A DNA stretch of 64,000 nucleotides, taken from Nitrosopumilaceae archaeon (GTDB lineage: Archaea; Thermoproteota; Nitrososphaeria; Nitrososphaerales; Nitrosopumilaceae). A model generated the notes under the pieces. That model did no database searches, was not told the origin of the DNA, and was given only the letters and a program-made list of their open reading frames with translations. Below are positions 3,773-46,737 of the stretch, in pieces. A program made the position numbers and the translations under genes. The stretch is from assembly GCA_052389415.1 (NCBI GenBank), contig JBQTHX010000055.1, positions 31,714-95,713 of the forward strand. Reading direction: 5' to 3'. Position 1 is the first letter of the stretch. Every line of letters begins with the position of its first letter.

Positions 3773-3819
3773 GAATCTCTTTTGAAAAGATAATATTGTA
3801 TAGATAGAGGCTGATCTAC

Positions 3820-3893: not shown

Positions 3894-3906
3894 GTTGATA
3901 AAAAAC

Positions 3907-30807: not shown

Positions 30808-30883
30808 GGGCCAGTAGTCTAGTGGTAGTGATGCCGCGTTCGCAACGCGGATGTCGGGGGTTCAAATCCCCCCTGGTCCACCA
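30808..30883 (+). tRNA. tRNA-Ala(CGC), CCA encoded; integration target
   Basis: GGGCCAG...CCGCG-TTCGCAA-CGCGG...GTTCAAATC...CTGGTCCACCA. Confidence 0.95.
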
Positions 30884-30884
30884 T
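30865..30884 (+). repeat. attL core (tRNA 3' end)
   Basis: Identical to 46718-46737. Confidence 0.93.
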
Positions 30885-30890
30885 TATGGC

Positions 30891-30907
30891 GTTCATTTTA
30901 TAGTTCC
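30891..30907 (-). repeat. Inverted att-flanking 'arm' motif
   Basis: Reverse complement GGAACTATAAAATGAAC matches GGAACCAAGAAATGAAC at 46689-46705 (14/17). Confidence 0.7.
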
Positions 30908-30923
30908 ACAACTATAGTAATGC

Positions 30924-32204
30924 GTGAAAATACGCATCGAAGATCTTGATGAAGTAACCAGCGAACCAATCAAGCTCTTCTATGACGGGATAAAATCTAA
31001 TGAGACCAGGGAAAAGTATACCAGAACTCTACGCAGAATCTTGTGTGATATTTTAGAGGATCTTTTACATGGCAGTTTTGAACAGCGTGCAGCAGAGCTT
31101 GTAAGAAAGGCAAAAGAAAATCCTGAATATGCTCTGAGTATTCTTCTTGCCATTTCAAGGAAGTTAAAACAAAGAACAGAATTACCAGAAACCAATCAAA
31201 ATTATCTTAATCCTATATCTATTCCATCATATTTCAAACCAATCAAAAAGATCTTTGACATGAATGGTGTTGCTGTGGTCTGGAAACGTGTTTATGCAAC
31301 ATTTCCGCAATACACCAACAAGACAAAGGGGAGAGGTTATTCTAGAGAAGAAATTGCAAAAGCATTGAATTTTACAAATGGATCCATTGACAAGGCAATC
31401 ATCTTGGTTGCTTGCAGCTCTGGGATCAGGGAAGGTGGATTCAAACTGAAATGGGAGGATCTGAAACCAGTTTACAAACTTGATGGAAAGCTCGTGTTTG
31501 ATTTTACCGAATCAGAGAAGGAAAGAGCAGAAATTGTTTGTGCAATGATTTCGATTTATTCAGGAGATGAAGAAGAGTATCCTGCATTCATCACACCTGA
31601 AGCATACAAGGCAATTGAAGATTACCGATCTAGTTGGATTAAGGATGTTGGAAGAGAACCAAAACCAACTGAGCCAATCTTCAAACAAGCTGGTGATTTA
31701 CCATTGATGCTAAAGCCTACTGCTATTAAGGCAAGAGTAGAGCGTGTTCTAAAGGAAGCTGGAATAAGGATTCCACTCCAAAAGGGAAAACGTAGACATG
31801 ATATTCCAGCCATGAATGGATTCAGACGATTCTTCAATAAGGCAAACAAGGAAACACTATCGAAGGATTCTCCTCTTGCAGCTTTGATAAAGAAGGAATA
31901 TCAGATGGGGCATGTTGGGTTGATCAAGCTTGATAGAAGCTATTTCCAATCCCACGTCTTCGAACTTGTTGAGGAATATGTCAATGCTGTTCCTAATCTT
32001 ACAATATCTGATGAAGAGCGAATAAAGGCAGAAAATGTAAGGTTAAAGAAGGAAAAATCTGAACTTGAAAAGAAAAATCTTGAAATCGAACAACTAAAAC
32101 TTGAACAAACGAAGATTCTAGAGGATCTCAGGAAAGTAAAGAAAAGACAGGAAAGATCTGAGAAATATCTTTTAAAACATGAACCGCTAGAATTTCATGA
32201 TTAA
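30924..32204 (+). CDS. Tyrosine recombinase/integrase with C-terminal coiled coil
   Basis: SSGIREG (R), MNGFRRFF (HxxR variant NxxR), QMGH, SYF (Tyr). Confidence 0.9.
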   Translation: MKIRIEDLDEVTSEPIKLFYDGIKSNETREKYTRTLRRILCDILEDLLHGSFEQRAAELVRKAKENPEYALSILLAISRKLKQRTELPETNQNYLNPISIPSYFKPIKKIFDMNGVAVVWKRVYATFPQYTNKTKGRGYSREEIAKALNFTNGSIDKAIILVACSSGIREGGFKLKWEDLKPVYKLDGKLVFDFTESEKERAEIVCAMISIYSGDEEEYPAFITPEAYKAIEDYRSSWIKDVGREPKPTEPIFKQAGDLPLMLKPTAIKARVERVLKEAGIRIPLQKGKRRHDIPAMNGFRRFFNKANKETLSKDSPLAALIKKEYQMGHVGLIKLDRSYFQSHVFELVEEYVNAVPNLTISDEERIKAENVRLKKEKSELEKKNLEIEQLKLEQTKILEDLRKVKKRQERSEKYLLKHEPLEFHD

Positions 32205-32899
32205 TACTCTGCCTTTACAACTCTTCTCGAGTTTGGTTTTCCTGGAAGGTTCAGGAACCATTTGGCGTTTGATAGTAGTTCTAAAGTCAAAGTTTTACAT
32301 TCCTTGTATTCTATTGGGAACAATTCCGCAAGTCTTTTTTCTACATTATGGATAATTTTATTATCATATTCGAGTCCAAGTTCATGTCCAAAAAGATTTG
32401 GGAAAACTTCCCTCATAGGAAGTGAATTTTCTATCCATTCTACTTGTTTTATGTTTGAGTTTTTTTCAATATATTTGAAACTCTCAATATAATTAAAAAT
32501 AGTATAGAATCCAATCATTTGAGTAAGGTTTAACAGAAACTTTTTGCGGTCATCAAATCTATTGGATCTTTGTAACAGAAAATCGCTTGCGTCTATTGCA
32601 TAAAGCTTTGCTTGCAATGCGATGTTTTTTTCTGCCGTAGGGAAGAGTCGATACAGAGGATAAGGATTACCACGTCCTCTCCCAATTTTTATTATCCTTC
32701 GATTCTTAATCAATCTCTGTAAAACATAGTCAGTGCCTTTATGATCAAAAAATCGTATTCCATTTTCTCGCAACATATTTTCAATTTGAAAGTGTCTTGC
32801 TTCTCCATGTATCAAAAGATACTCCACCACCAATTCATCAGGATCTTTGAATTGGAAGGTTTTGGATAAATGATATTTTTTTCTACCGTCTATCATCAC
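32201..32899 (-). CDS. Winged-helix-like protein, probable element regulator
   Basis: VVEYLLIHGEARHFQI...VLQRLIKNRRIIK...YRL wHTH-like pattern; divergent from the RHH operon. Confidence 0.6.
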   Translation of the reverse strand: MMIDGRKKYHLSKTFQFKDPDELVVEYLLIHGEARHFQIENMLRENGIRFFDHKGTDYVLQRLIKNRRIIKIGRGRGNPYPLYRLFPTAEKNIALQAKLYAIDASDFLLQRSNRFDDRKKFLLNLTQMIGFYTIFNYIESFKYIEKNSNIKQVEWIENSLPMREVFPNLFGHELGLEYDNKIIHNVEKRLAELFPIEYKECKTLTLELLSNAKWFLNLPGKPNSRRVVKAEY

Positions 32900-32901
32900 T
32901 T

Positions 32902-32919
32902 AGGGTAGTTTACTACCCT
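32902..32919. promoter_or_regulatory. Inverted-repeat operator between the divergent wHTH and RHH genes
   Basis: AGGGTAGT-TT-ACTACCCT, perfect 8-bp arms. Confidence 0.6.
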
Positions 32920-32949
32920 TTTATTAAGTTCATTGTCTCTATGTCATTC

Positions 32950-33075
32950 ATGCAAAATACGACAATAACAGTCAGCGTGGAAACCCGAAATAGGCTGGCG
33001 AAAATTGGAAGATTTGGCCAAAGTTTTGACGAAGTCATTAAAGATTTGATACAGATCTGGGAGAATTCTGTATGA
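32950..33075 (+). CDS. Ribbon-helix-helix (CopG-like) regulator, 41 aa
   Basis: Manual translation MQNTTITVSVETRNRLAKIGRFGQSFDEVIKDLIQIWENSV; archaeal RHH pattern TTI.VS.ETR..L......SFDEVI..L. Confidence 0.8.
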   Translation: MQNTTITVSVETRNRLAKIGRFGQSFDEVIKDLIQIWENSV

Positions 33076-33239
33076 CAAATCAGAGGTCTCCAATCTTTTG
33101 TTGCAAGTGTAAGGCAGGAAAACAATACAGGCTTTGGATTGATGGAGGAAGTTCTGGAAATTATATACTAGAATTTTGTGAAAATTGTTTTGATACAGAG
33201 GGGAAAGAATTTCTATTAAAGGAGGAGAAAATCATTTGA
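33072..33239 (+). CDS. Small Zn-finger protein, 55 aa
   Basis: Manual translation MTNQRSPIFCCKCKAGKQYRLWIDGGSSGNYILEFCENCFD...; ATGA and TTGA overlaps with its neighbours. Confidence 0.7.
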   Translation: MTNQRSPIFCCKCKAGKQYRLWIDGGSSGNYILEFCENCFDTEGKEFLLKEEKII

Positions 33240-34018
33240 AGTTATTCTTCAACTCAATCCCAATTATTTTCACTAAAATAAGAGAAATCATTAGCGATTT
33301 CTTCAATTCGAATTTGAGCCAAACCAAATTTCTTTCTGAGGATTTTCCTCAACGTGAAAAAATGGATACAGGAAACAAGCTGGAGGGTATGGGGGCTCTA
33401 TTTGCAGAAATTCTTTCAGGACATCTCTCTGGAATAAAGGAAATACATGACATAAAGATCAAAACTAATTCTGATTTACATAAGCATCTAGTTTCGTCTG
33501 GACACTCACAAGACAGAACCAACAAGGGCATATACCTTGAAATTCCGACCCCTGAACCTTCACTAGCTATTAAGATAGCAGTTTACCCTAGTACGATCCA
33601 AATCGACATAGGATGCAGTAATGAACCATTCACTTGTGATTCTACTGGAGCACTGAGGCTATCATCCCTTTTAGCACGAATAAGAGATTCACTACTTGAA
33701 CTTTCTGCACGTAACGCAAGGATTCCATCCACTGATGAATGGATAGTCACACATAGACATTATGGAATTGATGGACAAGAAATTGAATTATCTGGTAACG
33801 CTCTAAACGTAACTGTTAATGATGAAATAAAGGGATTTAGACGCATGTATACAAAGATACTTCCTGATGGCAGAGTGATACCACGTGTGGAGAAGGTTGT
33901 TACTGCAAAAAATACAGTTTCGGAAGAGTTAGACCAGATTTCGAATGACAAGTACGATGTAATCAGACCTAGTGGCAGATTAATGGCAGGTGGCAGGAGC
34001 AAAATTGATTCTGATTGA
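33236..34018 (+). CDS. Hypothetical protein, possible Rep_trans-like replication initiator
   Basis: IVTHRHYGID...RMYTK...RVEK recalls the R-D-x-A-x-D / R-x-Y-x-K / R-x-E motif order; lies downstream of a CopG-like gene. Confidence 0.5.
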   Translation: MKLFFNSIPIIFTKIREIISDFFNSNLSQTKFLSEDFPQREKMDTGNKLEGMGALFAEILSGHLSGIKEIHDIKIKTNSDLHKHLVSSGHSQDRTNKGIYLEIPTPEPSLAIKIAVYPSTIQIDIGCSNEPFTCDSTGALRLSSLLARIRDSLLELSARNARIPSTDEWIVTHRHYGIDGQEIELSGNALNVTVNDEIKGFRRMYTKILPDGRVIPRVEKVVTAKNTVSEELDQISNDKYDVIRPSGRLMAGGRSKIDSD

Positions 34019-34502
34019 CAGAACAAGTAGGCTGTCCAAGAATCAGATATCAAGATTGAAAAATGTTATACGATTTTGTGATTTTGGAAAATTTACCATT
34101 GAGGAGTCAATGAAACGCATCAATTCTGGTGTTCTGGGCTATCATAAAACTACAAAGAATGGCACTCTTATTCCAATTACTATCTCTGAAAGAACTTACT
34201 ACAGATATAGAAACCAAACCCAGGATCTAAATGAGGTCGAAAAAGAATTGAGAGATTTCATGAGGGAAGAGTACACCATCCAAATGCATTCAATCCTTTC
34301 AGTCATACGTGAATTATTTGCACTAACACAGCAAAATCTACATCAAGCAAAAACAGCACGTGACAGGCAATATATCATCAATAGCATGATCCAAAACTTT
34401 CCGAAATACACGCAGTATCTTGAGGTGATAAGAATTCTAATGGAAAGAGGAAAGCTTCCCCTTGGCGAGAGTTCTAAAGAAATCAAACATGATGTTAGTT
34501 GA
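33990..34502 (+). CDS. HTH-containing helical protein
   Basis: ISERTYYRYR recognition-helix-like motif followed by helical segments. Confidence 0.6.
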   Translation: MAGAKLILIDRTSRLSKNQISRLKNVIRFCDFGKFTIEESMKRINSGVLGYHKTTKNGTLIPITISERTYYRYRNQTQDLNEVEKELRDFMREEYTIQMHSILSVIRELFALTQQNLHQAKTARDRQYIINSMIQNFPKYTQYLEVIRILMERGKLPLGESSKEIKHDVS

Positions 34503-34627
34503 TAGTTAAGAAGTTCTAGCTTCAGTTGTTAGAATTCGTGATGCAAAATTCACAAATAATCTGGGCACCCAAAGTCTTCTAGGTGGATTGAAGACAAAGT
34601 GAGTTTTAAGAATCCATGAATTAGATT

Positions 34628-34777
34628 CTATAATTCTGTTTTTAGAATTATTTTGTTATTTTCTTCTGTAAACACCAATGTTTGTCCAACATCAATTTTC
34701 ATATGTTTTCTAACATCTTCAGGAATGGTGACCTGAAATCGCACGGTTACTTTGCTTGCTCCCAAAATTTTAGCCAT
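34628..34777 (-). CDS. AbrB/MazE/SpoVT family DNA-binding protein, 49 aa
   Basis: Manual translation MAKILGASKVTVRFQVTIPEDVRKHMKIDVGQTLVFTEENNKIILKTEL. Confidence 0.88.
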   Translation of the reverse strand: MAKILGASKVTVRFQVTIPEDVRKHMKIDVGQTLVFTEENNKIILKTEL

Positions 34778-34848
34778 TTAACAAGTTAAACAAGATAACC
34801 AAGAATATACATAGCCATGAATACCAAGATTACCAAGATAAATCTTAT

Positions 34849-35796
34849 ATGAGAAATTGGTCAGTTTTGACTATGATGGTTCGGGCTAGGTTGGCGGGAT
34901 TTATTATAATCACAGTTATCACTTTTAGTACAGTATATTTTACATCTGCGAATGCTCAGGAAAACAAGATTCCCGATTGGGTGAAAGGAGTAACAGGCTG
35001 GTGGGCTGAGGGAAAAATTTCTGAAAGTGAATTTATCAACGCCATGGAATTCTTAATCAACGAAGGGATCATTAAACCCTCTTCTATTATTACATTGCAG
35101 GATAAGGCAAATGAATTACAGGCGAGATTGGATGCTGCACAAAAAAGAATAATTTCATTGGAACAACAAATTTCTGAACCAGATTCTGGTTCGTCCTCTG
35201 ATAATAATACTGCAGATTCGGATCTTCTAAAACTAAAAATTTCTGCGTCATCATGGGGCAAGAGTCAAATTAGTGATGCAGATTATTTCAACGAAATCCA
35301 AAAGCTGGTAGATAATGGAACAATAAAACCATTCGATGGTAACCAGAACAAAAATCCAGAAACAAACAAAGAACCTATCCCTAGGCTTCCTAGTATTCAT
35401 ACTTTTCAATTTCCATTTGATACATCAGAGCCAAAACATCTAACCATTTATTTGGGAGACACTGTAAAATGGATTAACTCTGATGACGAATCTCATACAG
35501 TAACAAGTGGAACAAAAGAAATAGGCTACGATGGAAAGTTTTTTGATAGATTGATTTCACCAAACGAATCCACTAATGCTAGTTTCTCTGGAACTGGGAC
35601 ATTTACTTTTTTCTGCAGGCTTTACAATCATAATGAAAATCTTGTTGTAGACGTTATAGCTGAATATCGTCAAGTCACTGTACCTCAATGGGTTAGAGAT
35701 AATGCCAAGTGGTGGGGAGAAGGAACTATTGTTTACAGTGACTATCGTGCGGGACTTGCCTATCTATATGAAAATGGTTTCATAAACAATCCATGA
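34849..35796 (+). CDS. Secreted protein with IPxW repeats, a coiled coil and a cupredoxin-like domain
   Basis: Signal peptide; IPDWVK and VPQWVRDNAKWW repeats; LGDTVKWINSD..SHTVTSG...GTFTFFCRL. Confidence 0.82.
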   Translation: MRNWSVLTMMVRARLAGFIIITVITFSTVYFTSANAQENKIPDWVKGVTGWWAEGKISESEFINAMEFLINEGIIKPSSIITLQDKANELQARLDAAQKRIISLEQQISEPDSGSSSDNNTADSDLLKLKISASSWGKSQISDADYFNEIQKLVDNGTIKPFDGNQNKNPETNKEPIPRLPSIHTFQFPFDTSEPKHLTIYLGDTVKWINSDDESHTVTSGTKEIGYDGKFFDRLISPNESTNASFSGTGTFTFFCRLYNHNENLVVDVIAEYRQVTVPQWVRDNAKWWGEGTIVYSDYRAGLAYLYENGFINNP

Positions 35797-35810
35797 GGAT
35801 TAAGAGGCTG

Positions 35811-35923
35811 AAAAATGGATGAATAATGTTTTAGATGGGGGTCCTTGGGCTGTAGATTTTGATGATAGAAAGGCCTTTCCAACCTTCGTAACTCCAACCC
35901 GTACACTCTATTCATATTTCCAA
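35811..35923 (-). pseudogene. 5' fragment of a DUF72 gene (stop plus frameshift)
   Basis: Reads LEI*IECTGWSYEGWKG / PFYHQNLQPKDPHLKHYSSIF versus intact LEIKIGCTGWSYAGWIGPFYPNSLDAKYHLKHYSGIF at 42516..43307. Confidence 0.85.
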
Positions 35924-36124
35924 TGAGAAAAAATTGCTTAGCTAGAATCTTAGTTCTGCTGCGTACAAGATTGATTTTTCTTCGTGCTGCGGTTCGACTG
36001 ACAAGATAAAAATAAAGAAAATTCATGAAAATCGTACTAGTTATGTAGGTTTTACAAAAGACCTAATATTTTTTGCTAATCTTGCTATAAAGATATATCC
36101 GCCAGGGAATTACAGGTTTATTCC

Positions 36125-37270
36125 ATGCCTAAAAAATATGACAGCAAGTGGTGGATCTACGACCAAACTCATGAATCTCTGGATTCTCTTGTAGGGTTTT
36201 TAGAAAGCATGCTTAGCAGTAATAAAAAATATCAAATCGCTATGTTTTTACTGGTTTCTAAAAAGGATATTTTTGAATTATTTAGCTCAAAAAATTCATA
36301 TCATTTCTATACTGATTTTGGAAATTCAAATAAGAATAACAGTATGTTATCCTTTCGCATAACAAAAAAGGATGAAAAAAAGATCAAACCTGATATATCT
36401 GGAAATGTTCTATTTGCAAGAACACCAAAAAGCGAGGTCTATCTTGCAATTACTGATGAACCAAGAGATTTTGTTCAATTTGTATTAACACCATTTCTCA
36501 AATCATACTATCCGTACATCTCTAAAGCCTTCTTGAGTGCAAATGAATTACGCCAAATTTTAGAAAGGCTGGAGAGTGTAACAGGTGGGCAAATAATTGC
36601 GGATAGGATCACAGCACATAGACGTATTTCATATATTCCAATGCAACGTGATGAATCAGGTTCAAAAGAAAATAGGATAGAAACAAAGGAATCTCATAGA
36701 GTATGGACAAAAAGACCTTTTCGTGATGCTTTCAATGAAGCTATTCTTAATGATGAATGGATTGATAAAGTAGAATTTCGACTAATCAATGATTCAAAAA
36801 CTCAAATGGAAGCATATTTTTCAAGACACGGGTTGTTCAAATTTAGAGATTCGATTTCTCCATTTTATCAAACGTTATTGCCATTTATTATGGAAATAAT
36901 TGAAAGAAAGTTCAACTTATATTCCCATAGATCGAGAAATGAAAAACCAAAACCATCTCCTCTGGTTATTGAATTAGATTCTGATATATTCAAGGACGAT
37001 GCTCAGAATCACAGATTTATTGAAATTATGAAAAAAATGTCATATATTTCAATGAGCGTATATCACAACAATCCTTACATTCATGTCTCACTGGTAGATT
37101 ATTTAGATGGATCAACATTCGATCTTTGGGTACTATCAACAAATAAAATTACTGTTGTACCACAGTTACGTGCTACAGAAGCATCCGTAGCACGTTTAAT
37201 GAATCACATATTTGAAAGATTCAGAGAGGGGACAGTTAAGGAATATGAAGGATATGTCAAGACAACATGA
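36125..37270 (+). CDS. Hypothetical protein, first gene of a two-gene operon
   Basis: 381-aa ORF overlapping the next gene; C-terminal NPYIHVSLVDYLDGSTFDLWV block; no assignable family. Confidence 0.8.
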   Translation: MPKKYDSKWWIYDQTHESLDSLVGFLESMLSSNKKYQIAMFLLVSKKDIFELFSSKNSYHFYTDFGNSNKNNSMLSFRITKKDEKKIKPDISGNVLFARTPKSEVYLAITDEPRDFVQFVLTPFLKSYYPYISKAFLSANELRQILERLESVTGGQIIADRITAHRRISYIPMQRDESGSKENRIETKESHRVWTKRPFRDAFNEAILNDEWIDKVEFRLINDSKTQMEAYFSRHGLFKFRDSISPFYQTLLPFIMEIIERKFNLYSHRSRNEKPKPSPLVIELDSDIFKDDAQNHRFIEIMKKMSYISMSVYHNNPYIHVSLVDYLDGSTFDLWVLSTNKITVVPQLRATEASVARLMNHIFERFREGTVKEYEGYVKTT

Positions 37271-38249
37271 TCCTATTCAAAATCTATTAAAAGAAATAGA
37301 TAATTATCGTCAAACGGTTGGAGCTATACTTGCACTAGGCACTATTCTCATTCGTTATTATAATTCAGCATTTCGTGTTGGTCATAAATTAAAACCAAGT
37401 CCACAAAATCGTATACAAAGTAACGAAGATGTGACTCCAGATATTCTTGCTCAGGGGATTAATCTTAATCTTATTGGAGAAGTGAAGAAAAGTTTTCCAC
37501 AAAATGAGGAGTGGTGGTTATCTGATTTAAAACAGATCGAAAAATATGATGATAATTTGACAAATTGGGTAAATGGACAAGTTGAAAATCATGATCTTAT
37601 GTTATTAACTCATATTTCTCGAGGTCCAAAACTCAGAAGTTTTTTAGAAAGAAAAATTGCAGAAGGGAAAATACAATTCAATCGACCACTATCAATAATT
37701 GAATTTACTCGTGATTCCCAGATTTCAACATTTTGGCATTTAAGAAAAAGTTGGGGAATAATATCAAATAAAACTTTAGATAATCACTTAACCGTAGAGA
37801 CAATAAATCTTAATGGAGAAAATATTGTTTCTGAGCTAAGCTCGGTCTTGTTTTATGATTCTGAACCTATAATGCCTGATTTGATGAATCTCATTTGGAT
37901 AAAAGTATTTCCTGATAAAGCCACAACAGAACGATATATGGAAGCAGCTGGTAAAAAAATCATTGAGTTAACATTTACGGTGGATGAGGTAGTAGACAAA
38001 TGTAGACAATATTTTTCAATGCCAGATTCATCGCTTCCTAAAAGAGAGTGGATTAAAAAAGCGATAGAAGGACTTGTAAAGCTTAACCGAGCCAAAAAAC
38101 TCGTTGGGGAAAATTATTTAATATATTATCATAAAATTGGTCCAGATACATTAAGAACTTTTGTTAAAGAATGGTTAGATAGTTCGCAAGATATTAGAGA
38201 ATTTATACCACAACCAGAGGATTCAACAGACAATCAAACATTAGACTAG
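37212..38249 (+). CDS. Putative PD-(D/E)xK nuclease with C-terminal winged helix (likely start at 37254)
   Basis: TPDILAQ...GEVKK...QIEKY (PD..ExK plus QxxxY); C-terminal WIKKAIEGLVKLNRAKK...YLI. Confidence 0.65.
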   Translation: MKDSERGQLRNMKDMSRQHDPIQNLLKEIDNYRQTVGAILALGTILIRYYNSAFRVGHKLKPSPQNRIQSNEDVTPDILAQGINLNLIGEVKKSFPQNEEWWLSDLKQIEKYDDNLTNWVNGQVENHDLMLLTHISRGPKLRSFLERKIAEGKIQFNRPLSIIEFTRDSQISTFWHLRKSWGIISNKTLDNHLTVETINLNGENIVSELSSVLFYDSEPIMPDLMNLIWIKVFPDKATTERYMEAAGKKIIELTFTVDEVVDKCRQYFSMPDSSLPKREWIKKAIEGLVKLNRAKKLVGENYLIYYHKIGPDTLRTFVKEWLDSSQDIREFIPQPEDSTDNQTLD

Positions 38250-38336
38250 CTGTTCCATTGAGTTCCAAGAATTCTGATTTTGGCACAAAACGGATCCAGG
38301 ATAATTCCAAGATGATATTCTAGTAACTGTGGATTA

Positions 38337-38372
38337 GGAACCAAAAAATGAACATTATGATCGTTATTCCCA
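38337..38372 (+). repeat. Degenerate internal att-arm copy
   Basis: GGAACCAAAAAATGAACATTATGATCGTTATTCCCA versus GGAACCAAGAAATGAACAGTATAGTCGCTAATCCCA at 44140. Confidence 0.7.
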
Positions 38373-38434
38373 ATTGATTTGATCGCTCCATCGCAGGTAA
38401 TCTCGCAATACCCCTGCTCTATTAAACCAAAAAT

Positions 38435-39280
38435 ATGTATGAAAATACCTTGGCAAAATCAATCCTACAGTACTATTGTGGCAACTGTGACGGCATACTC
38501 AAAGAGACAGAAGAGAGTCTCTCATTACCTCTCATAGAACCATGCCCATTCTGCGGCACGCTCTTGTCTGGAACACTACAAAGAAGATCCTTAAACCAGA
38601 GACCAAAAACGTCTTTCCCAGAATTTCAAAGGGCATCACATCTTCCAAGACTTACTCTAAACATACCAAAATTAGATTCAATTCTTCACTTTCTTACATT
38701 AGACCAGAAAATTTGCATTACAGGTGTACAGACTCAAAAATTGATTGAGAGAATATGCATCCGTGCACAACTTCCTTCCAAATATGGCGGGCTTGGTACC
38801 AAAGTACTGTTAGTCGATGGTGCAAATAGCTCTGACATTTACCAGTGTGTAGATTTTGCGCAGAAATACGGATTGGATGTAAAAAAAGCCCTGAAAGGAA
38901 TAGTTACAACAAGAACCTTTACTGTATATCAGTTAGCTAATTTTATCATTTATGAATTAGAAAATGCAATCAAATCCCATGATGTAAAACTTGTCGTAAT
39001 AACTAATCTCTTGTACTATTTTACAAATGATCCTTATCTTGATACAAGCGAGATGCAACAAATTATAAAAGAAGTAATAAAATCACTAGAAAAAATAAAC
39101 AACTGTCTAGTAATTGTATCACTAGGATCTCAAACTAGATTTGATAATATGATACTTCAATTATTTTCTTCAACAATCAAAATAACACCACAAAATAATG
39201 TCTTGTCTGTAGATATAAACAATCAAGGAAGACAACACTCCATCACTTTACTAAACAACGAGCTAGAGAAAGTTCAATAG
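38435..39280 (+). CDS. Inactivated RadA/RecA-like protein (iRadA) with N-terminal Zn finger
   Basis: CGNC...CPFC; RecA-fold motifs VLLVDGANS, RTFTVYQL, KLVVITNL; no intact Walker A. Confidence 0.82.
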   Translation: MYENTLAKSILQYYCGNCDGILKETEESLSLPLIEPCPFCGTLLSGTLQRRSLNQRPKTSFPEFQRASHLPRLTLNIPKLDSILHFLTLDQKICITGVQTQKLIERICIRAQLPSKYGGLGTKVLLVDGANSSDIYQCVDFAQKYGLDVKKALKGIVTTRTFTVYQLANFIIYELENAIKSHDVKLVVITNLLYYFTNDPYLDTSEMQQIIKEVIKSLEKINNCLVIVSLGSQTRFDNMILQLFSSTIKITPQNNVLSVDINNQGRQHSITLLNNELEKVQ

Positions 39281-39547
39281 GTGAACATCATGGGAAGAAC
39301 AGTTCCTTCTTTTCGCATTGCATTGTATCAAGAAGAAGTAAGATGGAAAAAGTTTCGTGCAGCACTGGATAAAAAGGAGAGAAAATCCTTTGATGAAATG
39401 TTTGCCATTGCCAGACTTTACATTTCAGCTTGCATGATGTCATGCCGACCAGTTAGGATACAACCCATACTTTTAGCCATAATTTTTCACCATTTCAAGC
39501 AAATTTCATGCCTAGGAGGTCAGATTGAGCCTATTTCCAAAGGATGA
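39281..39547 (+). CDS. PolB2-associated small protein (arCOG07300/PPB2-like)
   Basis: MGRTVPSFRIAL..E..RW..FR.AL...ER..FDEMF family signature. Confidence 0.85.
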   Translation: MNIMGRTVPSFRIALYQEEVRWKKFRAALDKKERKSFDEMFAIARLYISACMMSCRPVRIQPILLAIIFHHFKQISCLGGQIEPISKG

Positions 39548-39761
39548 CCTACTTTCAAAGGAGATAGAATCCTGGAAGGCATTTGAGGATAGCCTACGAG
39601 AAGATGATAGAAAGATATTCCATAAGATGATTCAACAATGCTATAGTCATATCAAGGCAATTAACACCAAAGGCGAGCCATACACCACTGAATCAATGTT
39701 AATGTCATTGATTCTAACACAACAACGGATGATTGAATTTTTATTAAAAATTAAAAAATGA
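39525..39761 (+). CDS. Second PPB2-like paralog
   Basis: EIESWKAFEDSLREDDRKIFHKM aligns with the preceding gene; overlaps the polB2 start. Confidence 0.75.
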   Translation: MSLFPKDDLLSKEIESWKAFEDSLREDDRKIFHKMIQQCYSHIKAINTKGEPYTTESMLMSLILTQQRMIEFLLKIKK

Positions 39762-41920
39762 AAACGGGATGGTTATTTGATGTATATCCACTACACGACA
39801 GAATCATTTTATGGATTAAAAACAAGAAGACTTTTAGAATTGAAAAAGAATGGACTCCGTTTCTTTATGTTGCTAGCAGTAAACACAAGCTAGATGCTTT
39901 ATTAAAAAATCAAAGGATACTTGAATTTGTAAAATATATTGAATGGGTTGACAGAATCGAAAAAGTTTCTGATCTGAATACATCTAAAGTGTTAAAATTA
40001 ACAGTAAAAGATTCTTCCTATCTTGTCAGACTGGCAAAAACAATTGAAGGAGTTGATTCGTTTGGAATCTACAGACTGTACAACGTTGACATTCCTCCAG
40101 AACAAACTTACTTGTACGAACATGATTTGTATCCACTAGCAAAATATGAAATTCAAGACACATGGAAGGAACTTTCTGATATTGAAGAGACAGATTACAA
40201 ACTGCCAGCATTTTCAAAAATAAGATTAAAAGTGAATGCAAGAAATACTCAAAAACTTGCTACATTTTCTGATAAAATAAAATCCATTCAAATCGACAAA
40301 ACAATACTAGAATCTGATTCAGAAGAAAAAATGATTCTTGATTGTGTAGATATGATTCAAGACATTGATCCTGACTATATCATTACAGAAAAGGGAGACT
40401 CGTGGGATCTTCCTTTTCTTGCACAAAGAGCCCATGAAAATCAGGTTTCCGATAGACTCGTTTTGGGACGTGAGAAAAATCACCCTATCTCAAGGCCAAA
40501 AAGGGACGGAACGTCATATTTCTCCTATGGCCAGATACACTTCAAGCCTACGGCTACAAAATTACTAGGCAGAATCCATCTTGACATGTCAAACTGTACT
40601 CTCTGGAAGGATGAGATCTCTATTCAAGGGGTTTACGAGGTCGCAAGAACCTGCAGACTTCCAATTCAGACGGCAGCAAGAGCATCGATTGGAAAATGCA
40701 TGAGCTCAATCCAGTTTTATAACGCAACAAAACGTGGTTTGCTGATTCCATGGAAACCAATAGTATCGGAAATTGTAAAAAACAGAATGGATTTGTTAAT
40801 TGGAGACCGTGGAGGACTGATACTAGAACCTTTAATTGGTGTACATGAAAATGTTGGCGAGGTTGATTTTGCATCTCTGTTTGGAAATATCATGCTTAAA
40901 AAAAATATTTCCGCAGAAACAATTGATTGCAAATGCTGCCCTGATTCTAACAATATAGTACCAGATCTTGGTTATCATATTTGCAACAGAAAGGGAATTG
41001 TTCCACAATCTCTTAAACTATTGCTGGACAAGAGACAAAAATATACAGAACTAATTGAAACAACAAAAGACAAGAAAAAATTAGAGACATACAAGGAAAG
41101 AAAGGCCGCACTGAAATGGATTTTGGTGACATCATTTGGATATTTGGGATTCAATAATGCCAAGTTTGGAAGAATAGATGCTCATATGGCAGTCTGTGCA
41201 TTTGCAAGAAATCTTTTGTTACAAGCAATAAAAATATCCGAGAAAAATGGATTCAAAGTCTTGCATGGGATTGTGGACTCGTTATGGATTCACAAAAAGA
41301 ATGCGACAAGATCTGATTATGATGATATCAGAAATAAAATTGCGGAAGAGACAGGATTTGATCTATCACTTGATGTGTACAACTGGATTGTATTTTTACC
41401 ATCTAAAGAAAACAAGATTGTTCCTGTTCCAAACAGATACTTTGGCTCAAACCAAAACCATGAGCTAAAACTGCGTGGAATCGAAACAAGAAGGCATGAC
41501 ACTCCGGAATTTTTCAACCAATGCCAACATGAGATTCTAAACCTCTTTGCGTCTTGTAAAGGGGTAAATGAGATAAAGAGGGCAATTTCTGAGGCAAGGG
41601 GAATCCAGGAAAGGTATAGAGAACGACTTCTCAGACACAAAGTACCTCTTGATGACCTTGTATTTACCAACAGAGTCACAAGAGGTACTGGAGAGCACAA
41701 GAGCAATACAATCCAAGCCGATGCAGTAAACCAGCTCAAATGGGCAGGTCGTACCATATCGCCAGGTCAGAAAATAAGATATGTAATTAATGACTATACA
41801 AGAAGAATCTCAAAGCGTGTTGTTCCAATAGAGATTGCAGGATCGAATTACGATGCAAAAAGATATTCTGAACTTTTGGATGAGTGTTGCAAGTCAATAC
41901 TAGAGCCATTTGAGAATTAA
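39758..41920 (+). CDS. polB2: Family B DNA polymerase, PolB2 group
   Basis: Motif A DFASLFGN, motif B KWILVTSFGY, motif C HGIVDS (instead of YGDTDS), RGIETRRHD; eroded exonuclease domain. Confidence 0.92.
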   Translation: MKTGWLFDVYPLHDRIILWIKNKKTFRIEKEWTPFLYVASSKHKLDALLKNQRILEFVKYIEWVDRIEKVSDLNTSKVLKLTVKDSSYLVRLAKTIEGVDSFGIYRLYNVDIPPEQTYLYEHDLYPLAKYEIQDTWKELSDIEETDYKLPAFSKIRLKVNARNTQKLATFSDKIKSIQIDKTILESDSEEKMILDCVDMIQDIDPDYIITEKGDSWDLPFLAQRAHENQVSDRLVLGREKNHPISRPKRDGTSYFSYGQIHFKPTATKLLGRIHLDMSNCTLWKDEISIQGVYEVARTCRLPIQTAARASIGKCMSSIQFYNATKRGLLIPWKPIVSEIVKNRMDLLIGDRGGLILEPLIGVHENVGEVDFASLFGNIMLKKNISAETIDCKCCPDSNNIVPDLGYHICNRKGIVPQSLKLLLDKRQKYTELIETTKDKKKLETYKERKAALKWILVTSFGYLGFNNAKFGRIDAHMAVCAFARNLLLQAIKISEKNGFKVLHGIVDSLWIHKKNATRSDYDDIRNKIAEETGFDLSLDVYNWIVFLPSKENKIVPVPNRYFGSNQNHELKLRGIETRRHDTPEFFNQCQHEILNLFASCKGVNEIKRAISEARGIQERYRERLLRHKVPLDDLVFTNRVTRGTGEHKSNTIQADAVNQLKWAGRTISPGQKIRYVINDYTRRISKRVVPIEIAGSNYDAKRYSELLDECCKSILEPFEN

Positions 41921-41979
41921 AATTCTCCCAGGGTCTTTTGATTCTTGTCAACAAAATGTAAAAATCAAGTGCGGATGAA

Positions 41980-41997
41980 TTTCCCAAATTTGGGAAA
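41980..41997. promoter_or_regulatory. Perfect 18-bp palindrome upstream of the 42034 gene
   Basis: TTTCCCAAATTTGGGAAA is its own reverse complement. Confidence 0.45.
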
Positions 41998-42033
41998 ATA
42001 AAGTTAATATGCTAATTACTGAAGAAATTAAGG

Positions 42034-42444
42034 ATGACAAATTTCAAAATCGGAAAAAAGGCATTTGTCCTAAGTGCTCTAGTTGCACTATCACTTGGAA
42101 TCATAACCTTTAATCCCACACACGCAGCTCCTGCGATAGTGGAAATTGGGCCTGGGATTGGCTGCACTTTATTTGACGGTGATGGCAGCGTGGCATTTGC
42201 ACCTGACGCACAGGGAGTTGTAACGCAAAGCAATAATGGCAACATTAAGCTTACTTGCCATGCAGAAAACGTACCAAACAATCAAGGAAAAGCAGTTCGC
42301 TATGACAGCAACAACAATCCATTTGGTCCGGGACAACCATGTGTTTACCAAGGGGAGGCTACACTAAATTGGAAGGAAGTTGTTAGCGATAATGGCGATG
42401 GTACTGGCGACGCTACGCTTGTATGTCACTTCAAGACAGCCTAA
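42034..42444 (+). CDS. Small secreted Cys/Gly-rich protein
   Basis: Signal peptide ending THA-A; four Cys; T-rich terminator-like tract after the stop. Confidence 0.75.
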   Translation: MTNFKIGKKAFVLSALVALSLGIITFNPTHAAPAIVEIGPGIGCTLFDGDGSVAFAPDAQGVVTQSNNGNIKLTCHAENVPNNQGKAVRYDSNNNPFGPGQPCVYQGEATLNWKEVVSDNGDGTGDATLVCHFKTA

Positions 42445-42515
42445 CCACACCAAATATTCTCTTTTTTTAAAATCCTAGTCTACGTTAACGTCAGGTTCAA
42501 GATTTTAGTAAGGGT

Positions 42516-43307
42516 TTAGAAATCTCCCAACGTTTTCTGCTTCTTATCAGCAAAACTCAGATTCTCAAGTCCAAGCAACCTTCTAAATTCATTTACAGAG
42601 CCCGGAGCAAAACCCTGAAAATGGTTGTTAAGATTTACATATGCAATTGGAACATTTGTATTTTTTAAAATATCAATCCATTTTTTCATTTCCTTTGTTC
42701 TATCTTTTTGAATTTTTCCAAATTGATCTTCAGGAATACTCCTGTCACCGATCAATCTAAGATAGACAAAATCTGTAGTAATTGGTGCTGGATTATTAAC
42801 GCCATCAACTTCGTTCCAAATAAGACAGACATTTTTTTCTCGAAGATATTGGAAAACCTTATCGGAAAACCATGATTCATGTCGTCCCTCTAATGCATAT
42901 CGAAAGGACTTTGGAAGGTGGTTTAACATTTTGTCTAATTTCTCTTTTGCCTCTTCAAATGATAGAGAGGGTGGAAGTTGGATTACAATCACATTCATTT
43001 TTGATTTCATTGGTGTTATAGCTTGGAGAAATTGATCAAGGGATGGTCCAGGTTTTAGTCTGTTGTCATGGGTAATTATTTTTGGAAGTTTTGCTGTGAA
43101 AATGAAATTTTCAGGAGTGTCATTGTACCATTTTTTAGTCATTGCCTGAGATGGAATGCGGTAAAAGGTAGAGTTGACTTCGGTAATATCAAAAATTCCG
43201 GAATAATGCTTCAAGTGGTATTTTGCATCAAGGGAATTTGGATAAAAAGGTCCGATCCATCCGGCATAACTCCAACCCGTGCATCCTATTTTTATCTCCA
43301 ATAACAA
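42516..43307 (-). CDS. DUF72 (YecE/YunF) family protein
   Basis: IGCTGWSY..W, EVNSTFY, QLPPS, EGRHESW, YLRLIGD, NNHFQG. Confidence 0.93.
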   Translation of the reverse strand: MLLEIKIGCTGWSYAGWIGPFYPNSLDAKYHLKHYSGIFDITEVNSTFYRIPSQAMTKKWYNDTPENFIFTAKLPKIITHDNRLKPGPSLDQFLQAITPMKSKMNVIVIQLPPSLSFEEAKEKLDKMLNHLPKSFRYALEGRHESWFSDKVFQYLREKNVCLIWNEVDGVNNPAPITTDFVYLRLIGDRSIPEDQFGKIQKDRTKEMKKWIDILKNTNVPIAYVNLNNHFQGFAPGSVNEFRRLLGLENLSFADKKQKTLGDF

Positions 43308-43345
43308 AGAGTTTTTGAACTAAAATCTAAATCTTGGTTCTAAAT

Positions 43346-43371
43346 CTGGAATCATGAACTGAACATTTTAG
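43346..43371 (+). repeat. Degenerate internal att-arm copy
   Basis: CTGGAATCATGAACTGAACATTTTAG versus CTGGAACCAAGAAATGAACAATATAG (21/26). Confidence 0.6.
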
Positions 43372-43510
43372 AACTAAATCTACAAGAGAGCAATATTATC
43401 AAGGCTAGCTTCAATACATACTCTGGAATATTCCAGACTTTCTGCTTTTGAACATTCATCTTTTTTTCCAAATAACTAATAATACCCTGGAGAATTCATT
43501 ATAAATTCAG

Positions 43511-44023
43511 ATGAATTTTATGTTAAAATCTAAAAACATACCACATGGAGTAATCTTAATCTCAATATTTTTACTAGTTAATGGAATAATTCTTGCCATT
43601 GTTCCAATTCAGATCATCATAAATAGATCATTTGATGATTGGGTTAGAAACTTATTCTGGCATCCATTGGTTCAATTAACCTTCTGGATTCCAACCGAAT
43701 CAATTCAGCTACCAGATCCATGGTATGTTTCTGTATTGGATGTTGGAGTGGGAGTTCAATTCCTTATCTTGTTATTTGGAATAGCTCAATTTCTTGGAAT
43801 TTTTGGAATCTATCTTTTCAAGAAATGGACTAGAAATTTTATAATTATTCTCATGTGTATTAACATTTTTTCAATAATTCCATTAACAGTAATCTTGATT
43901 CCAGCGTTAGGTAATCTTTCGCCTATAGGATCCCTTATTTCTGGAGGTATTCCGATTGTCTCTTTCTTCATTATTCATCATATGCGTAGGCCGCATATCA
44001 AAAATTTTTTCTCAAATCCCTGA
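43511..44023 (+). CDS. Multi-TM membrane protein
   Basis: About four hydrophobic segments; C-terminal RPHIKNFF. Confidence 0.72.
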   Translation: MNFMLKSKNIPHGVILISIFLLVNGIILAIVPIQIIINRSFDDWVRNLFWHPLVQLTFWIPTESIQLPDPWYVSVLDVGVGVQFLILLFGIAQFLGIFGIYLFKKWTRNFIIILMCINIFSIIPLTVILIPALGNLSPIGSLISGGIPIVSFFIIHHMRRPHIKNFFSNP

Positions 44024-44075
44024 TATTAGCAACCTATATGTTAAAACACGAAGATAATCATCCAACAAACTTCTT

Positions 44076-44184
44076 TCCAACAAATTATAACGTACCATCT
44101 AACCTAATAGCTTCAGTTTTCCTGCGTAGAGGACGCTCTGGAACCAAGAAATGAACAGTATAGTCGCTAATCCCATCGGGTCCG
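44076..44184 (+). repeat. 99-bp copy of the attR-flanking arm, ending in a tRNA-3'-end-like core
   Basis: 44076-44174 versus 46625-46723 is 94/99 identical; core AATCCCATCGGGTCCG at 44169-44184. Confidence 0.92.
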
Positions 44185-44262
44185 TGAAAATTTTTTTTAT
44201 CGGTTGCAATCAAAATACAATTTATCAGCAATCTCTAAAGCATTCTGTCTTGATTTTATGAT

Positions 44263-46059
44263 ATGAACCATCTCTACTTTGTAATTCCTCTATTTGCATT
44301 GATAATAATTCAATATGCAGACGGTGTTCCTGCAAGTTCGATTGTAACCAAAGATGCTTTAGGTAATGAAATTGATCCCACTTTAAATCAACAGGTTTTC
44401 TTTAATTATGATATTGCAAATGGTGATAAATCCTCCAAGGCTTTTGAAATTGATCTTTTTATAATTCTGGATGATACCAATGAACAGATTTTTTACAAAA
44501 AGCAGCAATTACAGTTGAAACCGGACGCATGGACAACAGTAACTTGGAGTTTTACACCTTTAAAACCTGGTAACTATACCGCAAAAATAATTGAGAATGA
44601 TATTTCACATTCGTACGGTTTTGTCATAAAAAACGATGTGCTGACACAACATGGGAATAACCTTTGTGATGAATTTTCAGTTTTAAAAAAGGCAATGCCG
44701 ATTGAATTAAAATATGAAATTGACGCTGGAAAGATAACCAAGATTTGCAAGCTTGAAAATGATGTATCAGTCGTAGTCAAAATTGAAGCTGACTCTAACG
44801 GTCGATTCTCAATAGAAATTCCAAAGAAATTAGTGTACTCACTTTTAGATGATTGTGAGGAAGGGGAAATTTTTGTCTTAATGGATAATGCTGAAATAAT
44901 CCCAGTTGACACCAAAAGTACAATTTCAAATAATATAATGACAATTGAGTTTCAAAAAGGAGAACATGTTGTTGAATTTGTTGGCACCAATATGGTTTCC
45001 CAAGGTTCCAAATTTTCACCTGCCATTTACTGTGGGATTGTAAAAGGATATAATTTGCAGTATTTGCCACCAAAAATCCAAATTGAAAATGGTGTTTCTT
45101 TACAAGATATTAGATGCAATAAAGGATTGGAATTGATATTCAAAAATACGAATGATTTTCCTGCATGTGTAAAACCAAAAAGTTTGCTTCGACTTGTGGA
45201 TCTCGGTTGGGGTCATATCGCAAATGTTTTTGAAACGAAAACAGATCTACTGAATACTAAAATTACAGGTGGCAAGATTATTGGATTCAAATTTGATGTT
45301 GAAGCTGCAAGTATTGTAATAAATCTAGAAACAACAAATGATGGGAGCCTGACACTGTCTATTCCTAAAGCTCTTACTGACTCGATGTCTTGGTATAAGA
45401 ACAATCCAAGTCATGGTGCCTTAATTGATGGACAATTTTTGGAGCTTAACGAAATCATTACTTCAGGAGGTACCACTGTAATAATTCCATTCAAACAAGG
45501 AGCTAAAACAATAGAGATTTTTGGTTCACATGAACACAAAGTTACAAACTGTCCTGTAGACGAATCACTAGATCTTATTCCTGTAAGATTTGATCAGTTT
45601 GGAAACCCTCTGAGACTAGTATTTTTTGTGGAATCCAATTCTACTGCACAGATATGCATTAGGTACACGTCTGGTCTAGATAATCAGGGTACCAAGTCTG
45701 TTGCGGACAAGTTGATAGTGGATTACTTTAACAACCAAAAAAGTCATATCTCTTCTGACGTAACGTCATCTGCTGAACCAAGCTCTGTTCCACTTGCGAT
45801 TGGCTCGGAAACTTTTGTTCTATTTACAATTACAGCACCAGCTAATTCAGATGGAGTTTACTGGTTACCAGAGGGTCAGATGTGCGATGCTATTCCGATA
45901 GTTGTCTGGTCTGATCTCCCACAGGTTAATTCATCAGAACTGACAGTAATTGTGGGGTTTCATAGTTGCGGACCACAAATGCTTACCGCCAAAATAGTTG
46001 GATTTTCAGGAGCAATAATGGACTACAAACCTGCAAAACCAATTGGATATCGAGATTAA
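44263..46059 (+). CDS. Multidomain secreted surface protein
   Basis: Signal peptide; Ig-like segment (WSFTPLKPGNY); two PEFG-type domains; PPKIQ..GV..DIRC..GL..PACVKP Cys motif. Confidence 0.8.
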   Translation: MNHLYFVIPLFALIIIQYADGVPASSIVTKDALGNEIDPTLNQQVFFNYDIANGDKSSKAFEIDLFIILDDTNEQIFYKKQQLQLKPDAWTTVTWSFTPLKPGNYTAKIIENDISHSYGFVIKNDVLTQHGNNLCDEFSVLKKAMPIELKYEIDAGKITKICKLENDVSVVVKIEADSNGRFSIEIPKKLVYSLLDDCEEGEIFVLMDNAEIIPVDTKSTISNNIMTIEFQKGEHVVEFVGTNMVSQGSKFSPAIYCGIVKGYNLQYLPPKIQIENGVSLQDIRCNKGLELIFKNTNDFPACVKPKSLLRLVDLGWGHIANVFETKTDLLNTKITGGKIIGFKFDVEAASIVINLETTNDGSLTLSIPKALTDSMSWYKNNPSHGALIDGQFLELNEIITSGGTTVIIPFKQGAKTIEIFGSHEHKVTNCPVDESLDLIPVRFDQFGNPLRLVFFVESNSTAQICIRYTSGLDNQGTKSVADKLIVDYFNNQKSHISSDVTSSAEPSSVPLAIGSETFVLFTITAPANSDGVYWLPEGQMCDAIPIVVWSDLPQVNSSELTVIVGFHSCGPQMLTAKIVGFSGAIMDYKPAKPIGYRD

Positions 46060-46181
46060 TTTTAAAATATGGTTACAATTTATCAGCAATCTCCAGGAAC
46101 GCCATGCATTCTGTAAATGATATGAAATATTTTTTTCTGTTTGCTATTTTGTTATCAATTATCTTTATTTTCCTTTTAGAG

Positions 46182-46589
46182 TCAAATTTTATCAGTACCG
46201 ATTATTTCGATTTCCTGATTACCCTTAACAAATGTGATGGTTAGTGTTCTATATGAGCTAGTTTTTGCTTCTATGTAAGGCGATTCTTCCCCATCTACTA
46301 TCAAAAATAAATCATTATCAGGGGTACCATTTTTTGAATCAATAAGCCCATGAGGTATTATCACAGTTATTTTTCCATCGTTTAATGTTTCTAAAAATAT
46401 AATTACAGAATTGGATTCTGAATCTTTCTTTGCACCTAACACATTACCGCCATTAATGGTATATTTTAATGAAAAAGGACTATCTTTTACTTCGACAATT
46501 TTTTCTTCAGATGGGGAATAAATCATAATGAATACTATTGAAGTGAGAATTGCCATTGTAACAAGGATGCCAATTACAAGTCTGTCCAT
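46182..46589 (-). CDS. Membrane-anchored PEFG-type domain protein
   Basis: N-terminal TM; YTINGG...DSESNSVII.LET..DG.ITV.IP..LID...DGEE..Y...RTLTITF..G..EIEIIGT. Confidence 0.78.
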   Translation of the reverse strand: MDRLVIGILVTMAILTSIVFIMIYSPSEEKIVEVKDSPFSLKYTINGGNVLGAKKDSESNSVIIFLETLNDGKITVIIPHGLIDSKNGTPDNDLFLIVDGEESPYIEAKTSSYRTLTITFVKGNQEIEIIGTDKI

Positions 46590-46624
46590 TGACTTCTAAA
46601 ATCAAAGTTTTGTTATAACGATTC

Positions 46625-46737
46625 TCCAACAAATCATAACGTACCATCTAACGTAATAGATTCAGTTTTCGTGCGTAGAGGACGCTCTGGAACCAAGAAA
46701 TGAACAATATAGTCGCTAATCCCCCCTGGTCCACCAT
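46625..46737 (+). repeat. attR arm plus core
   Basis: Ends with the 20-bp duplicate of the tRNA-Ala(CGC) 3' end at 46718-46737. Confidence 0.93.

Follow-up and report, generated by a model that had tools for sequence, protein, structure and literature searches.

The 64,000-nt stretch of a Nitrosopumilaceae archaeon genome analyzed here (contig JBQTHX010000055.1; hereinafter the window) contains a mobile island of 15,853 bp that is bounded on each side by a 20-bp copy, in direct orientation, of the 3' end of a tRNA-Ala(CGC) gene. As an integrated mobile element, it belongs with the so-called "cryptic integrated elements" and is driven by a divergent, putative tyrosine integrase. In addition to its terminal attachment (att) sites, it carries three internal copies of a motif, hereinafter the arm, that lies next to the att cores at both ends. 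We consider it probable that site-specific recombination at att sites occurred again and again and assembled a composite island in which the internal sites are the scars of these events, i.e., a case of tandem accretion with remnants akin to cis-mobilizable elements (CIMEs). The target gene, the integrase, and the att sites are located as follows:

30808–30883, plus strand: tRNA-Ala(CGC) gene, the integration target (ARAGORN; Rfam tRNA, 63.2 bits)
30865–30884, plus strand: attL core, the left copy of the 20-bp repeat, an exact match to 46718–46737
30891–30907, minus strand: P' arm, the inverted motif with 3 mismatches, 16 nt ahead of the integrase start and with a TATA-like run (profile score 19.4)
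30924–32204, plus strand: integrase of 426 aa, adjoining attL, a putative divergent tyrosine recombinase by homology to a paralog on contig C77
38337–38372, plus strand: internal site 1, consisting of arm, 12-nt spacer, and core start (33/52 to the attR template; profile score 22.6; 34/35 to a site on contig C30)
43348–43382, plus strand: internal site 2, a decayed arm and spacer, probably a relic (3 mismatches; 32/52, fifth best genome-wide; profile score 10.1)
44076–44207, plus strand: internal site 3, consisting of a P region, arm (44140–44156), variant core (44169–44186), and P'-like stretch (94.9% over 99 nt; 44/52)
46625–46737, plus strand: attR, consisting of a P region, arm (46689–46705), 12-nt spacer, and 20-bp core (46718–46737)

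With up to three mismatches allowed, the 17-nt arm motif has six matches in the window against 0.43 expected, a count that none of 100 shuffled sequences reaches. These matches lie at 30891 (minus strand, 3 mismatches), 38337 (plus, 1), 43348 (plus, 3), 44140 (plus, 0), 46689 (plus, 0), and 61805 (plus, 3); the last was discounted as a chance match, with a score below 28 of 52 in a scan with a longer template, and the other five all fall within or at the ends of the one element. The coordinates confirm what the original prediction, made from the letters of the window, had proposed for the two ends, namely that the arm ends 12 nt ahead of the attR core and starts, in inverted form, 6 nt past the attL core. 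The further copies at 44140, 38337, and 43348 indeed share one orientation, the one at 43348 being weaker, and all five copies are intergenic as claimed, in the sense that they lie outside ORFs (open reading frames) of at least 50 aa. The direct copies agree, in register, over the arm, the spacer, and the beginning of the core, and diverge thereafter. The repeat of 99 nt that had been noticed around the copy at 44140 is, by measurement, 94.9% identical to the flank of attR and extends to 108 nt at 93% (44076–44183 and 46625–46732).

A scan of the whole assembly (1.43 Mb) with a 52-nt attR template (2,852,034 positions; mean score 13.3, standard deviation 3.1) gave its five best scores to attR (52), 44140 (44), an orphan site on contig C30 (35), 38337 (33), and 43348 (32), against a background that reaches 31. 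The earlier suggestion that the two copies farthest from attR have decayed was right for 43348, which is weak when taken by itself (arm profile score 10.1; 23 of 35 positions identical to attR), and wrong for 38337, which represents a distinct subtype rather than a decayed attR copy, matching the C30 orphan site at 34 of 35 positions compared to 29 of 35 for attR. The C30 site belongs to a decayed element of the same genome (27610–29460) in which a 112-aa N-terminal fragment of an integrase is followed, after about 1.4 kb, by the arm and core; neither an attL nor a tRNA gene is present there. This fragment is just 38% identical to the window integrase, yet the two sites are nearly the same, and therefore the island appears to be of mixed ancestry. 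The site at 44140 is likely a hybrid P-core-P' site, the form expected of a junction between two elements: its variant core agrees with the tRNA core at 12 of 18 positions (counted by eye), and the P'-like stretch that follows contains an exact 11-nt match to the inverted P' arm of tRNA-Ala(GGC) elements (empirical p 56/3000).

Internal copies of this type could also be produced without any role of the integrase: a segment could be duplicated, crossing-over could be unequal, or related elements could undergo homologous recombination via the P region of about 100 nt that they have in common. The two long repeats (93–95% identity) are long and similar enough for homologous exchange, the contigs assembled from two sequencing runs break exactly at the 25 nt that these repeats have in common, and homologous recombination between tandem archaeal elements has been invoked to account for block exchange in archaeal reviews (PMC8371274). 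Nevertheless, we consider such an origin improbable. In three sites, similarity stops inside the core at one register, which points to a strand-exchange region and not to the random ends of duplications; the sites at 38337 and 43348 share just about 35 nt with attR, too short a stretch for homologous exchange; and the blocks between the sites are mutually unrelated in sequence. The origin of the internal junctions by the action of an integrase accordingly appears the better supported one, even as both this origin and the mobility of any part of the island are to be read as predictions.

The arms are not peculiar to the window. Among the 30 best loci of the integrase family, the integrase gene follows the 3' end of a tRNA gene (Lys, Arg, Val, or Ala), with an inverted arm 16–28 nt ahead of the integrase start codon, and in 22 of the 30 this arm matches that of the window at no less than 12 of 19 positions in ungapped alignment. 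Where the far end could be found (G169, G284, G070, G187, G135, and contig C54 of the source genome), a direct arm lies 10–14 nt before the attR core. A profile of 14 distinct arms, all from other genomes (one of them, G114, unpublished), ranks 38337, the C30 site, 30889, 44140, and 46689 within the best 12 of 2,858,238 positions; high-scoring matches on contigs C34 and C24 were set aside, being located in apparent coding sequence and lacking a core. Unpublished genomes enter the analysis through this one profile arm, one pattern match (G100), and tallies (G221, G243, and G275), and no conclusion hangs on them. The family loci, together with the recovery of the window copies by a profile built from other genomes, indicate that the arms are a conserved part of the att site, whose architecture is an arm, about 12 nt, a tRNA-derived core, about 6 nt, an inverted arm, and the integrase gene; the integrase presumably binds the arms. 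A minimal form of such an element, about 1.9 kb long, is seen on contig C54 of the source genome (5560–7540), where an intron-bearing tRNA-Lys gene is followed by an integrase 40% identical to that of the window, no more than one small ORF, and finally the arm and core, with 15 of 17 core positions identical.

It has to be considered whether the motif is instead a promoter or a transcription factor box that happens to lie beside the att core and regulates, through its internal copies, the neighboring genes. The inverted arm at attL has a TATA-like run 16–28 nt before the integrase start in most of the family loci and, by this placement at promoter distance, may (indeed, probably does) double as the integrase promoter. 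A regulatory function of the internal copies is nonetheless very improbable: the direct copies retain the spacer and the core start, for which a promoter has no need; a divergent gene is found on the proper side of just two of the four (DUF72 at 41 nt and a 135-aa ORF at 100 nt); and the motif occurs at other genes of this genome no more often than by chance. Its distribution beyond this genome is likewise narrow. Among 41 genomes, five arm+core sites were detected in the source genome, one at the orthologous attR of G003, and none elsewhere; two pattern scans of metagenomes for arm+core sites returned no matches; and a scan of species genomes yielded two stretches, the G003 contig and one from Bacteroidales that we took to be due to chance. 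Scans of related genomes, as proposed in the original prediction, thus showed no spread of the motif outside att sites in these 41 genomes and two metagenome scans.

The integrase of the window has no direct match in Pfam, PHROG, NCBIfam, or the PDB sequences, the integron and XerA-type models included. It is connected by tblastn (E 5.9e-33) to the paralog on contig C77, which passes the PF00589 threshold at 55 bits; PF00589 is weakly matched by two of 12 aligned family members, and the columns of the Arg, His, and Tyr residues are invariant in the family alignment. The assignment to the tyrosine recombinases is accordingly an indirect one, via relatives. At E 1e-40 or better, relatives of the integrase are present in 87 of the 301 genomes of the family Nitrosopumilaceae, representing 16 of its 27 genera; a search of viral contigs detected none. 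Apart from this integrase, the plus strand of the window encodes, at 1330–2661, a 444-aa ORF with weak tyrosine recombinase signals (family hidden Markov model [HMM], E 0.0015; archaeal XerA model, 1.4e-5) that stops 62 nt short of the 3' end of another tRNA-Ala gene (GGC; 2723–2797, minus strand) and may be another integrase or element.

The limits of the island are corroborated by empty sites. In eight related genomes, six of the same genus (G001, G002, G006, G008, G009, and G010) and two of other genera (G018 and G020), the left and right flanks abut with an overlap of about 20 nt. Moreover, in G003, of the same genus and the only other genome with the exact window arm, the attR arm, the core, and the right flank are all present, and similarity begins at the left edge of the arm; the contig stops about 200 nt into the element. 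In G015, the tRNA-Ala(CGC) gene holds a different 10.4-kb insert with a distant recombinase in the opposite orientation, and because of this second kind of insert at the same tRNA gene, the site can be regarded as a hot spot. Given that the island retains perfect outer cores and both arms, the whole could still excise as a single circle.

Tandem or composite arrangements are frequent among the nine relatives whose loci were examined over a longer stretch. Two integrase elements are arranged in tandem in G070. In G020, a tRNA-Arg gene is followed by an element with a divergent integrase, then by an element of the family, and then by two core+P' relics, which resemble each other at 95%, enclose surface-protein genes, and are separated by 2,286 nt. 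G284 contains a complete hybrid arm-core-arm site followed by genes other than an integrase, and G135 has a core that lacks its tRNA gene. The latter is found on contig C14, where tRNA-Ser, tRNA-Leu, and tRNA-Ala(CGC) genes succeed each other as in the window and, at a distance of 3.4 kb, are followed by an element of 18.3 kb; the left core of this element is a fragment of the tRNA-Lys type separate from any tRNA-Lys gene, an arrangement that suggests integration into a relic att site. Arm+core relics, as in the window, and core+P' relics, as in G020, both occur, which fits the random decay of tandem junctions.

The cargo between the sites of the island falls into four blocks:

32201–38249: block A, eight ORFs, seven lacking a family match and one cupredoxin-like (34849–35796)
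35800–35960, minus strand: fragment of the 5' end of a DUF72 gene with its upstream region, inside block A (repeat, alignment, and BLASTP)
38435–43307: block B, with iRadA, two PPB2, PolB2, a secreted protein, and DUF72 (minus strand)
43511–44023, plus strand: block C, a 170-aa protein with four hydrophobic segments
44263–46589: block D, a 598-aa WING-49 surface protein and a 135-aa paralog (minus strand)

The blocks hold from one to nine ORFs on both strands, each with its own upstream region. The proposal that att-derived copies mark the block boundaries holds, as judged by the arm, the fixed spacer, and the core start; the "replicon and nuclease pair" that had been assigned to block A could not be substantiated, as seven of its proteins match nothing in the Pfam, PHROG, and NCBIfam libraries. 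In block B, the matches are to Rad51 (1.4e-9), DNA_pol_B (2.7e-24), DUF72 (1.1e-52), and NF004416 (1.8e-114), the first small ORF starts with MGRT, and a 136-aa ORF has a signal-like N-terminus. A RadA-like gene, a small PPB2 gene with the MGRT start, and a gene for a family B polymerase in a row are the hallmarks of the PolB2 operon: iRadA, PPB2, and PolB2 are reported to form a translesion complex, in which PPB2 starts with MGRT and for which DUF72 is an enriched neighbor, in a part of the description of these operons (PMC11791011). Furthermore, PolB with two small genes and an inactivated RadA is listed as the cargo operon of the integrated thaumarchaeal element NitGar-E5 in part of the survey of such elements (PMC6563490). 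The assignment of block D is based on NF058652 (2e-18), N-terminal anchors, and the paralogy of its two proteins.

With these parts in hand, the formation of the island can be envisaged as follows. Circular DNAs bearing the arm-core-arm site, some of them related full elements and some probably derivatives devoid of an integrase, would recombine repeatedly with att sites already present in the chromosome, and each event would leave an internal arm+core junction. The internal integrases would then be lost, or would have been absent from the start, so that the distal blocks would become CIME-like remnants, and the assembled cargo would comprise the PolB2 translesion synthesis operon with DUF72, the membrane protein, and the surface proteins. 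The structure of a CIME composite is recognizable in what was found: an integrase-bearing element flanked by direct att repeats, internal direct att sites that bound integrase-less segments, and related loci with intact as well as decayed tandems at the same kind of site. Among the accounts considered, serial site-specific recombination, as put forward in the original prediction, remains the best explanation, and loci of relatives vary by whole arm-to-arm units, as detailed below.

Several observations weigh against this reading. The PolB2 blocks of G004, G006, and G019 show neither an arm nor an integrase on their short contigs, from which it follows that the arms do not travel with the PolB2 block; scores for P' relics upstream of these blocks in G006 and G004 are at the background level. 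A search of the window with the family HMM in six frames, at E up to 10, detected no integrase remnant outside 30921–32201, so that blocks B to D are free of any remnant while the C30 relic keeps 112 aa; for this reason, clean loss of the integrase three times over is not the cheapest scenario, and the import of integrase-less units may be needed to explain these blocks. The P'-like stretch at 44140 is no more than suggestive (p about 0.02), and at 38337 and 43348 similarity ends directly after the core start, with no P' stretch found there. Finally, the contigs of three sequencing runs, two of which probably include the source, were compared with the locus, and the circular junctions that the original prediction suggested looking for were not seen: neither a circle nor an empty-site joint is among the joints listed for these contigs. 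In run X3, both flanks are covered almost identically and most of the element is uncovered, which is not evidence of its absence. The contig with block D has a lower depth than that with blocks A to C (13.8 vs. 18 and 9.2 vs. 10.5), which may hint at cells without block D, a claim that per-contig depth cannot carry. A joint between 43336 and 44216 in run X2 was rejected as well, being probably derived from a paralogous locus: it includes 20 nt on one side, and its end motif is repeated elsewhere in the genus.

The clearest variation by whole units comes from a sister lineage. A gapped pattern of the family, run over the 301 genomes, led to arrays of arm+core sites after tRNA-Lys genes, namely four sites within 3.3 kb in G141, three in G116, and two in G288, and to two sites 4.6 kb apart after a tRNA-Arg gene in G303. 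The tRNA-Lys arrays are found at these loci:

L082 (G116), 11560–13500
L078 (G141), 984–5015
L079 (G288)

No family integrase is present inside any of the tRNA-Lys arrays, and G116 as a genome is without a relative of the integrase at E 1e-40 or better. The array units of about 0.6 kb are 65–88% alike and match the rightmost part of the minimal C54 element at 80–82%, and each encodes a ParE-like toxin of 94–95 aa (E about 8e-6, just under the Pfam cut-off) and an upstream ORF of 67–68 aa. The order is alpha, beta in G116; beta, a block with a 551-aa ORF, and alpha in G141; and a block with a 570-aa ORF and alpha in G288. Each internal core of the arrays is followed by about 22 nt that resemble both the inverted arm and the native flank of the tRNA gene. 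The arrays differ between genomes by whole arm-to-arm units. The expectation that homologous elements differ by such modules is thus borne out in the tRNA-Lys arrays of the sister lineage and less so for the PolB2 blocks of G004, G006, and G019.

The arrays, together with the arrangement of the window, raise the question of a dedicated platform comparable to an integron, in which the resident integrase would insert integrase-less arm+core cassettes serially at attR, the newest being nearest to attR. In favor of this possibility, all four direct sites point in the same direction and are intergenic, the distal blocks lack integrase remnants, the two sites nearest to the attR end are the most alike (34 of 35 positions), the small integrase-less toxin units that make up the tRNA-Lys arrays, in variable order, look cassette-like, and a minimal element of about 1.9 kb exists on C54. 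Integrons likewise have a tyrosine recombinase at one end, a one-way array, and units that each end in a recombination site, and toxin-antitoxin units, as in the related tRNA-Lys arrays, are present in large chromosomal integrons. The differences are substantial. The four direct sites form no attC-like hairpin (z-scores of the DNA fold vs. shuffled sequences, −0.29, −0.62, −1.02, and +2.21), the integrase matches no integron integrase model, and each site is a duplex copy of the arm and core of a tRNA-derived att site, in an array that has a tRNA gene as its anchor. The cassettes of integrons mostly consist of one promoterless ORF each, share an orientation, and are inserted at attI beside the integrase, whereas the blocks of the window contain one to nine genes, distributed over both strands and equipped with upstream regions of their own, and the sites are 6–15 kb away from the integrase. 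The large ORF of the arrays has opposite orientations relative to the sites in G141 and G288; the core+P' relics and intact tandems of relatives suit general accretion and decay; and six arm+core sites of the window type, in two of 41 genomes, are far fewer than in cassette systems. No age gradient is apparent either, identity to attR being 34, 23, and 29 of 35 with growing distance (44140, 43348, and 38337), and the site at 38337 is of the other subtype, which it has in common with the decayed C30 element. The integron label fails three defining tests, and we consider a platform of this kind unlikely. The claim that the newest cassette lies nearest to attR is not supported: there is no steady decay, and because tandem integration leads to one and the same structure whichever element arrived first, and identity to attR does not change monotonically, the order of arrival is unreadable.

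A broader proposal is that ammonia-oxidizing archaea have tRNA-anchored arrays of att-bounded integrase-less units, which would include toxin-antitoxin pairs, the PolB2 damage tolerance operon, and surface-protein genes, and that these units are added, removed, and reordered in trans by one widespread integrase family. Taken as one joint claim, this is a tentative idea that we rate as more doubtful than accretion as such. If the movement of integrase-less units in trans indeed continues, archaea would have a route of gene capture comparable to accretion and mobilization in streptococcal islands, or, put differently, an archaeal functional counterpart of CIME or integron-style capture on a tRNA-derived att site with conserved arms.

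Tandem accretion as such is not new, although the original prediction knew of no description of the architecture. In bacteria, tandem accretion with CIMEs is on record for ICESt1 and ICESt3 of Streptococcus thermophilus and for the tRNA-Lys islands of S. agalactiae, at least in part of the account of these elements (PMC5704250). There, as in the window, an element with a tyrosine integrase occupies the 3' end of a tRNA gene, direct internal att sites split integrase-bearing from integrase-less parts, the composites could excise whole or in part, and gene capture by accretion is the outcome, as far as that portion of the source goes. In contrast to those elements, the host of the window element is an archaeon, no conjugation genes were found in it, there are three internal sites as opposed to one, and two of these internal sites keep just the arm and the core start. 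Tandem integration and integrase loss have been noted in archaea, too, in portions of several reports (PMC6563490, PMC8371274, PMC7253208). The cryptic integrated elements of Thaumarchaeota resemble the present one in being tRNA-targeted elements with tyrosine recombinases, short att repeats, and tandem use of one site; the part of their description concerned (PMC6563490) mentions neither inverted arms nor arrays of internal relics, and its supplementary att tables may bear on this point. In lambda-type attP sites, the core is likewise flanked on either side by conserved blocks at set distances, beside the integrase gene; the site described here differs in having one block per side, in inverted arrangement, and its arm sites are candidates by sequence. 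A word search of a review of archaeal recombinases (PMC8371274) returned no arm sites for archaeal integrases, a literature search on att sites and integrases of this lineage returned by title nothing on archaeal att sites, and one on archaeal tandem att sites yielded, in the passages covered, no array of internal att relics, with the proviso that the att-site supplement to Krupovic et al. (2019) may be relevant. Three features seem to be new: the conserved arm-core-arm architecture shared by this family of archaeal integrases, how many internal relics there are, and the arrays of toxin units.

Gene exchange in ammonia-oxidizing archaea is little known, and the serial addition of blocks that leaves att scars behind, while known in bacteria, has been little described in archaea. 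The present locus and its relatives point to a single integrase family with a recognizable att architecture that piles up cargo at tRNA genes, among it surface proteins, toxin units, and an operon for a translesion polymerase. The arm-core-arm site offers a concrete substrate for a first biochemical test of a thaumarchaeal integrase as well as a sequence signature for locating such islands in metagenome-assembled genomes.

Some further features of the cargo merit mention. The DUF72 fragment inside block A comprises an 82-nt repeat that is 72% identical to the start of the intact DUF72 gene (43247–43328), and BLASTP recovers 13 of 22 identical residues (E 1e-4); the fragment may mark an older block end that lacks an arm. 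A second "5' remnant" of DUF72, at 38373–38390, was dropped, the similarity amounting to about 7 nt. The PolB2 block, from 38413 of the window onward, starts at the same base in three genomes of the same genus (that of the window, G006, and G004), in three upstream contexts, and this common start could be a recombination-prone end or simply the place where a conserved promoter stops. A "circular permutation" of block B, considered for G019, in which DUF72 lies directly upstream of iRadA, is weakened by DUF72 being a known neighbor of PolB2 operons in the part of their description noted above (PMC11791011). Finally, a motif of 24–32 nt ahead of the WING-49 gene (44208–44239; also 46074–46093) recurs on contigs C42, C9, and C55 of the source genome, in several genomes of the same genus, and, in different surroundings, among the contigs of the sequencing runs, and may be a leader or promoter common to a family of surface-protein genes.

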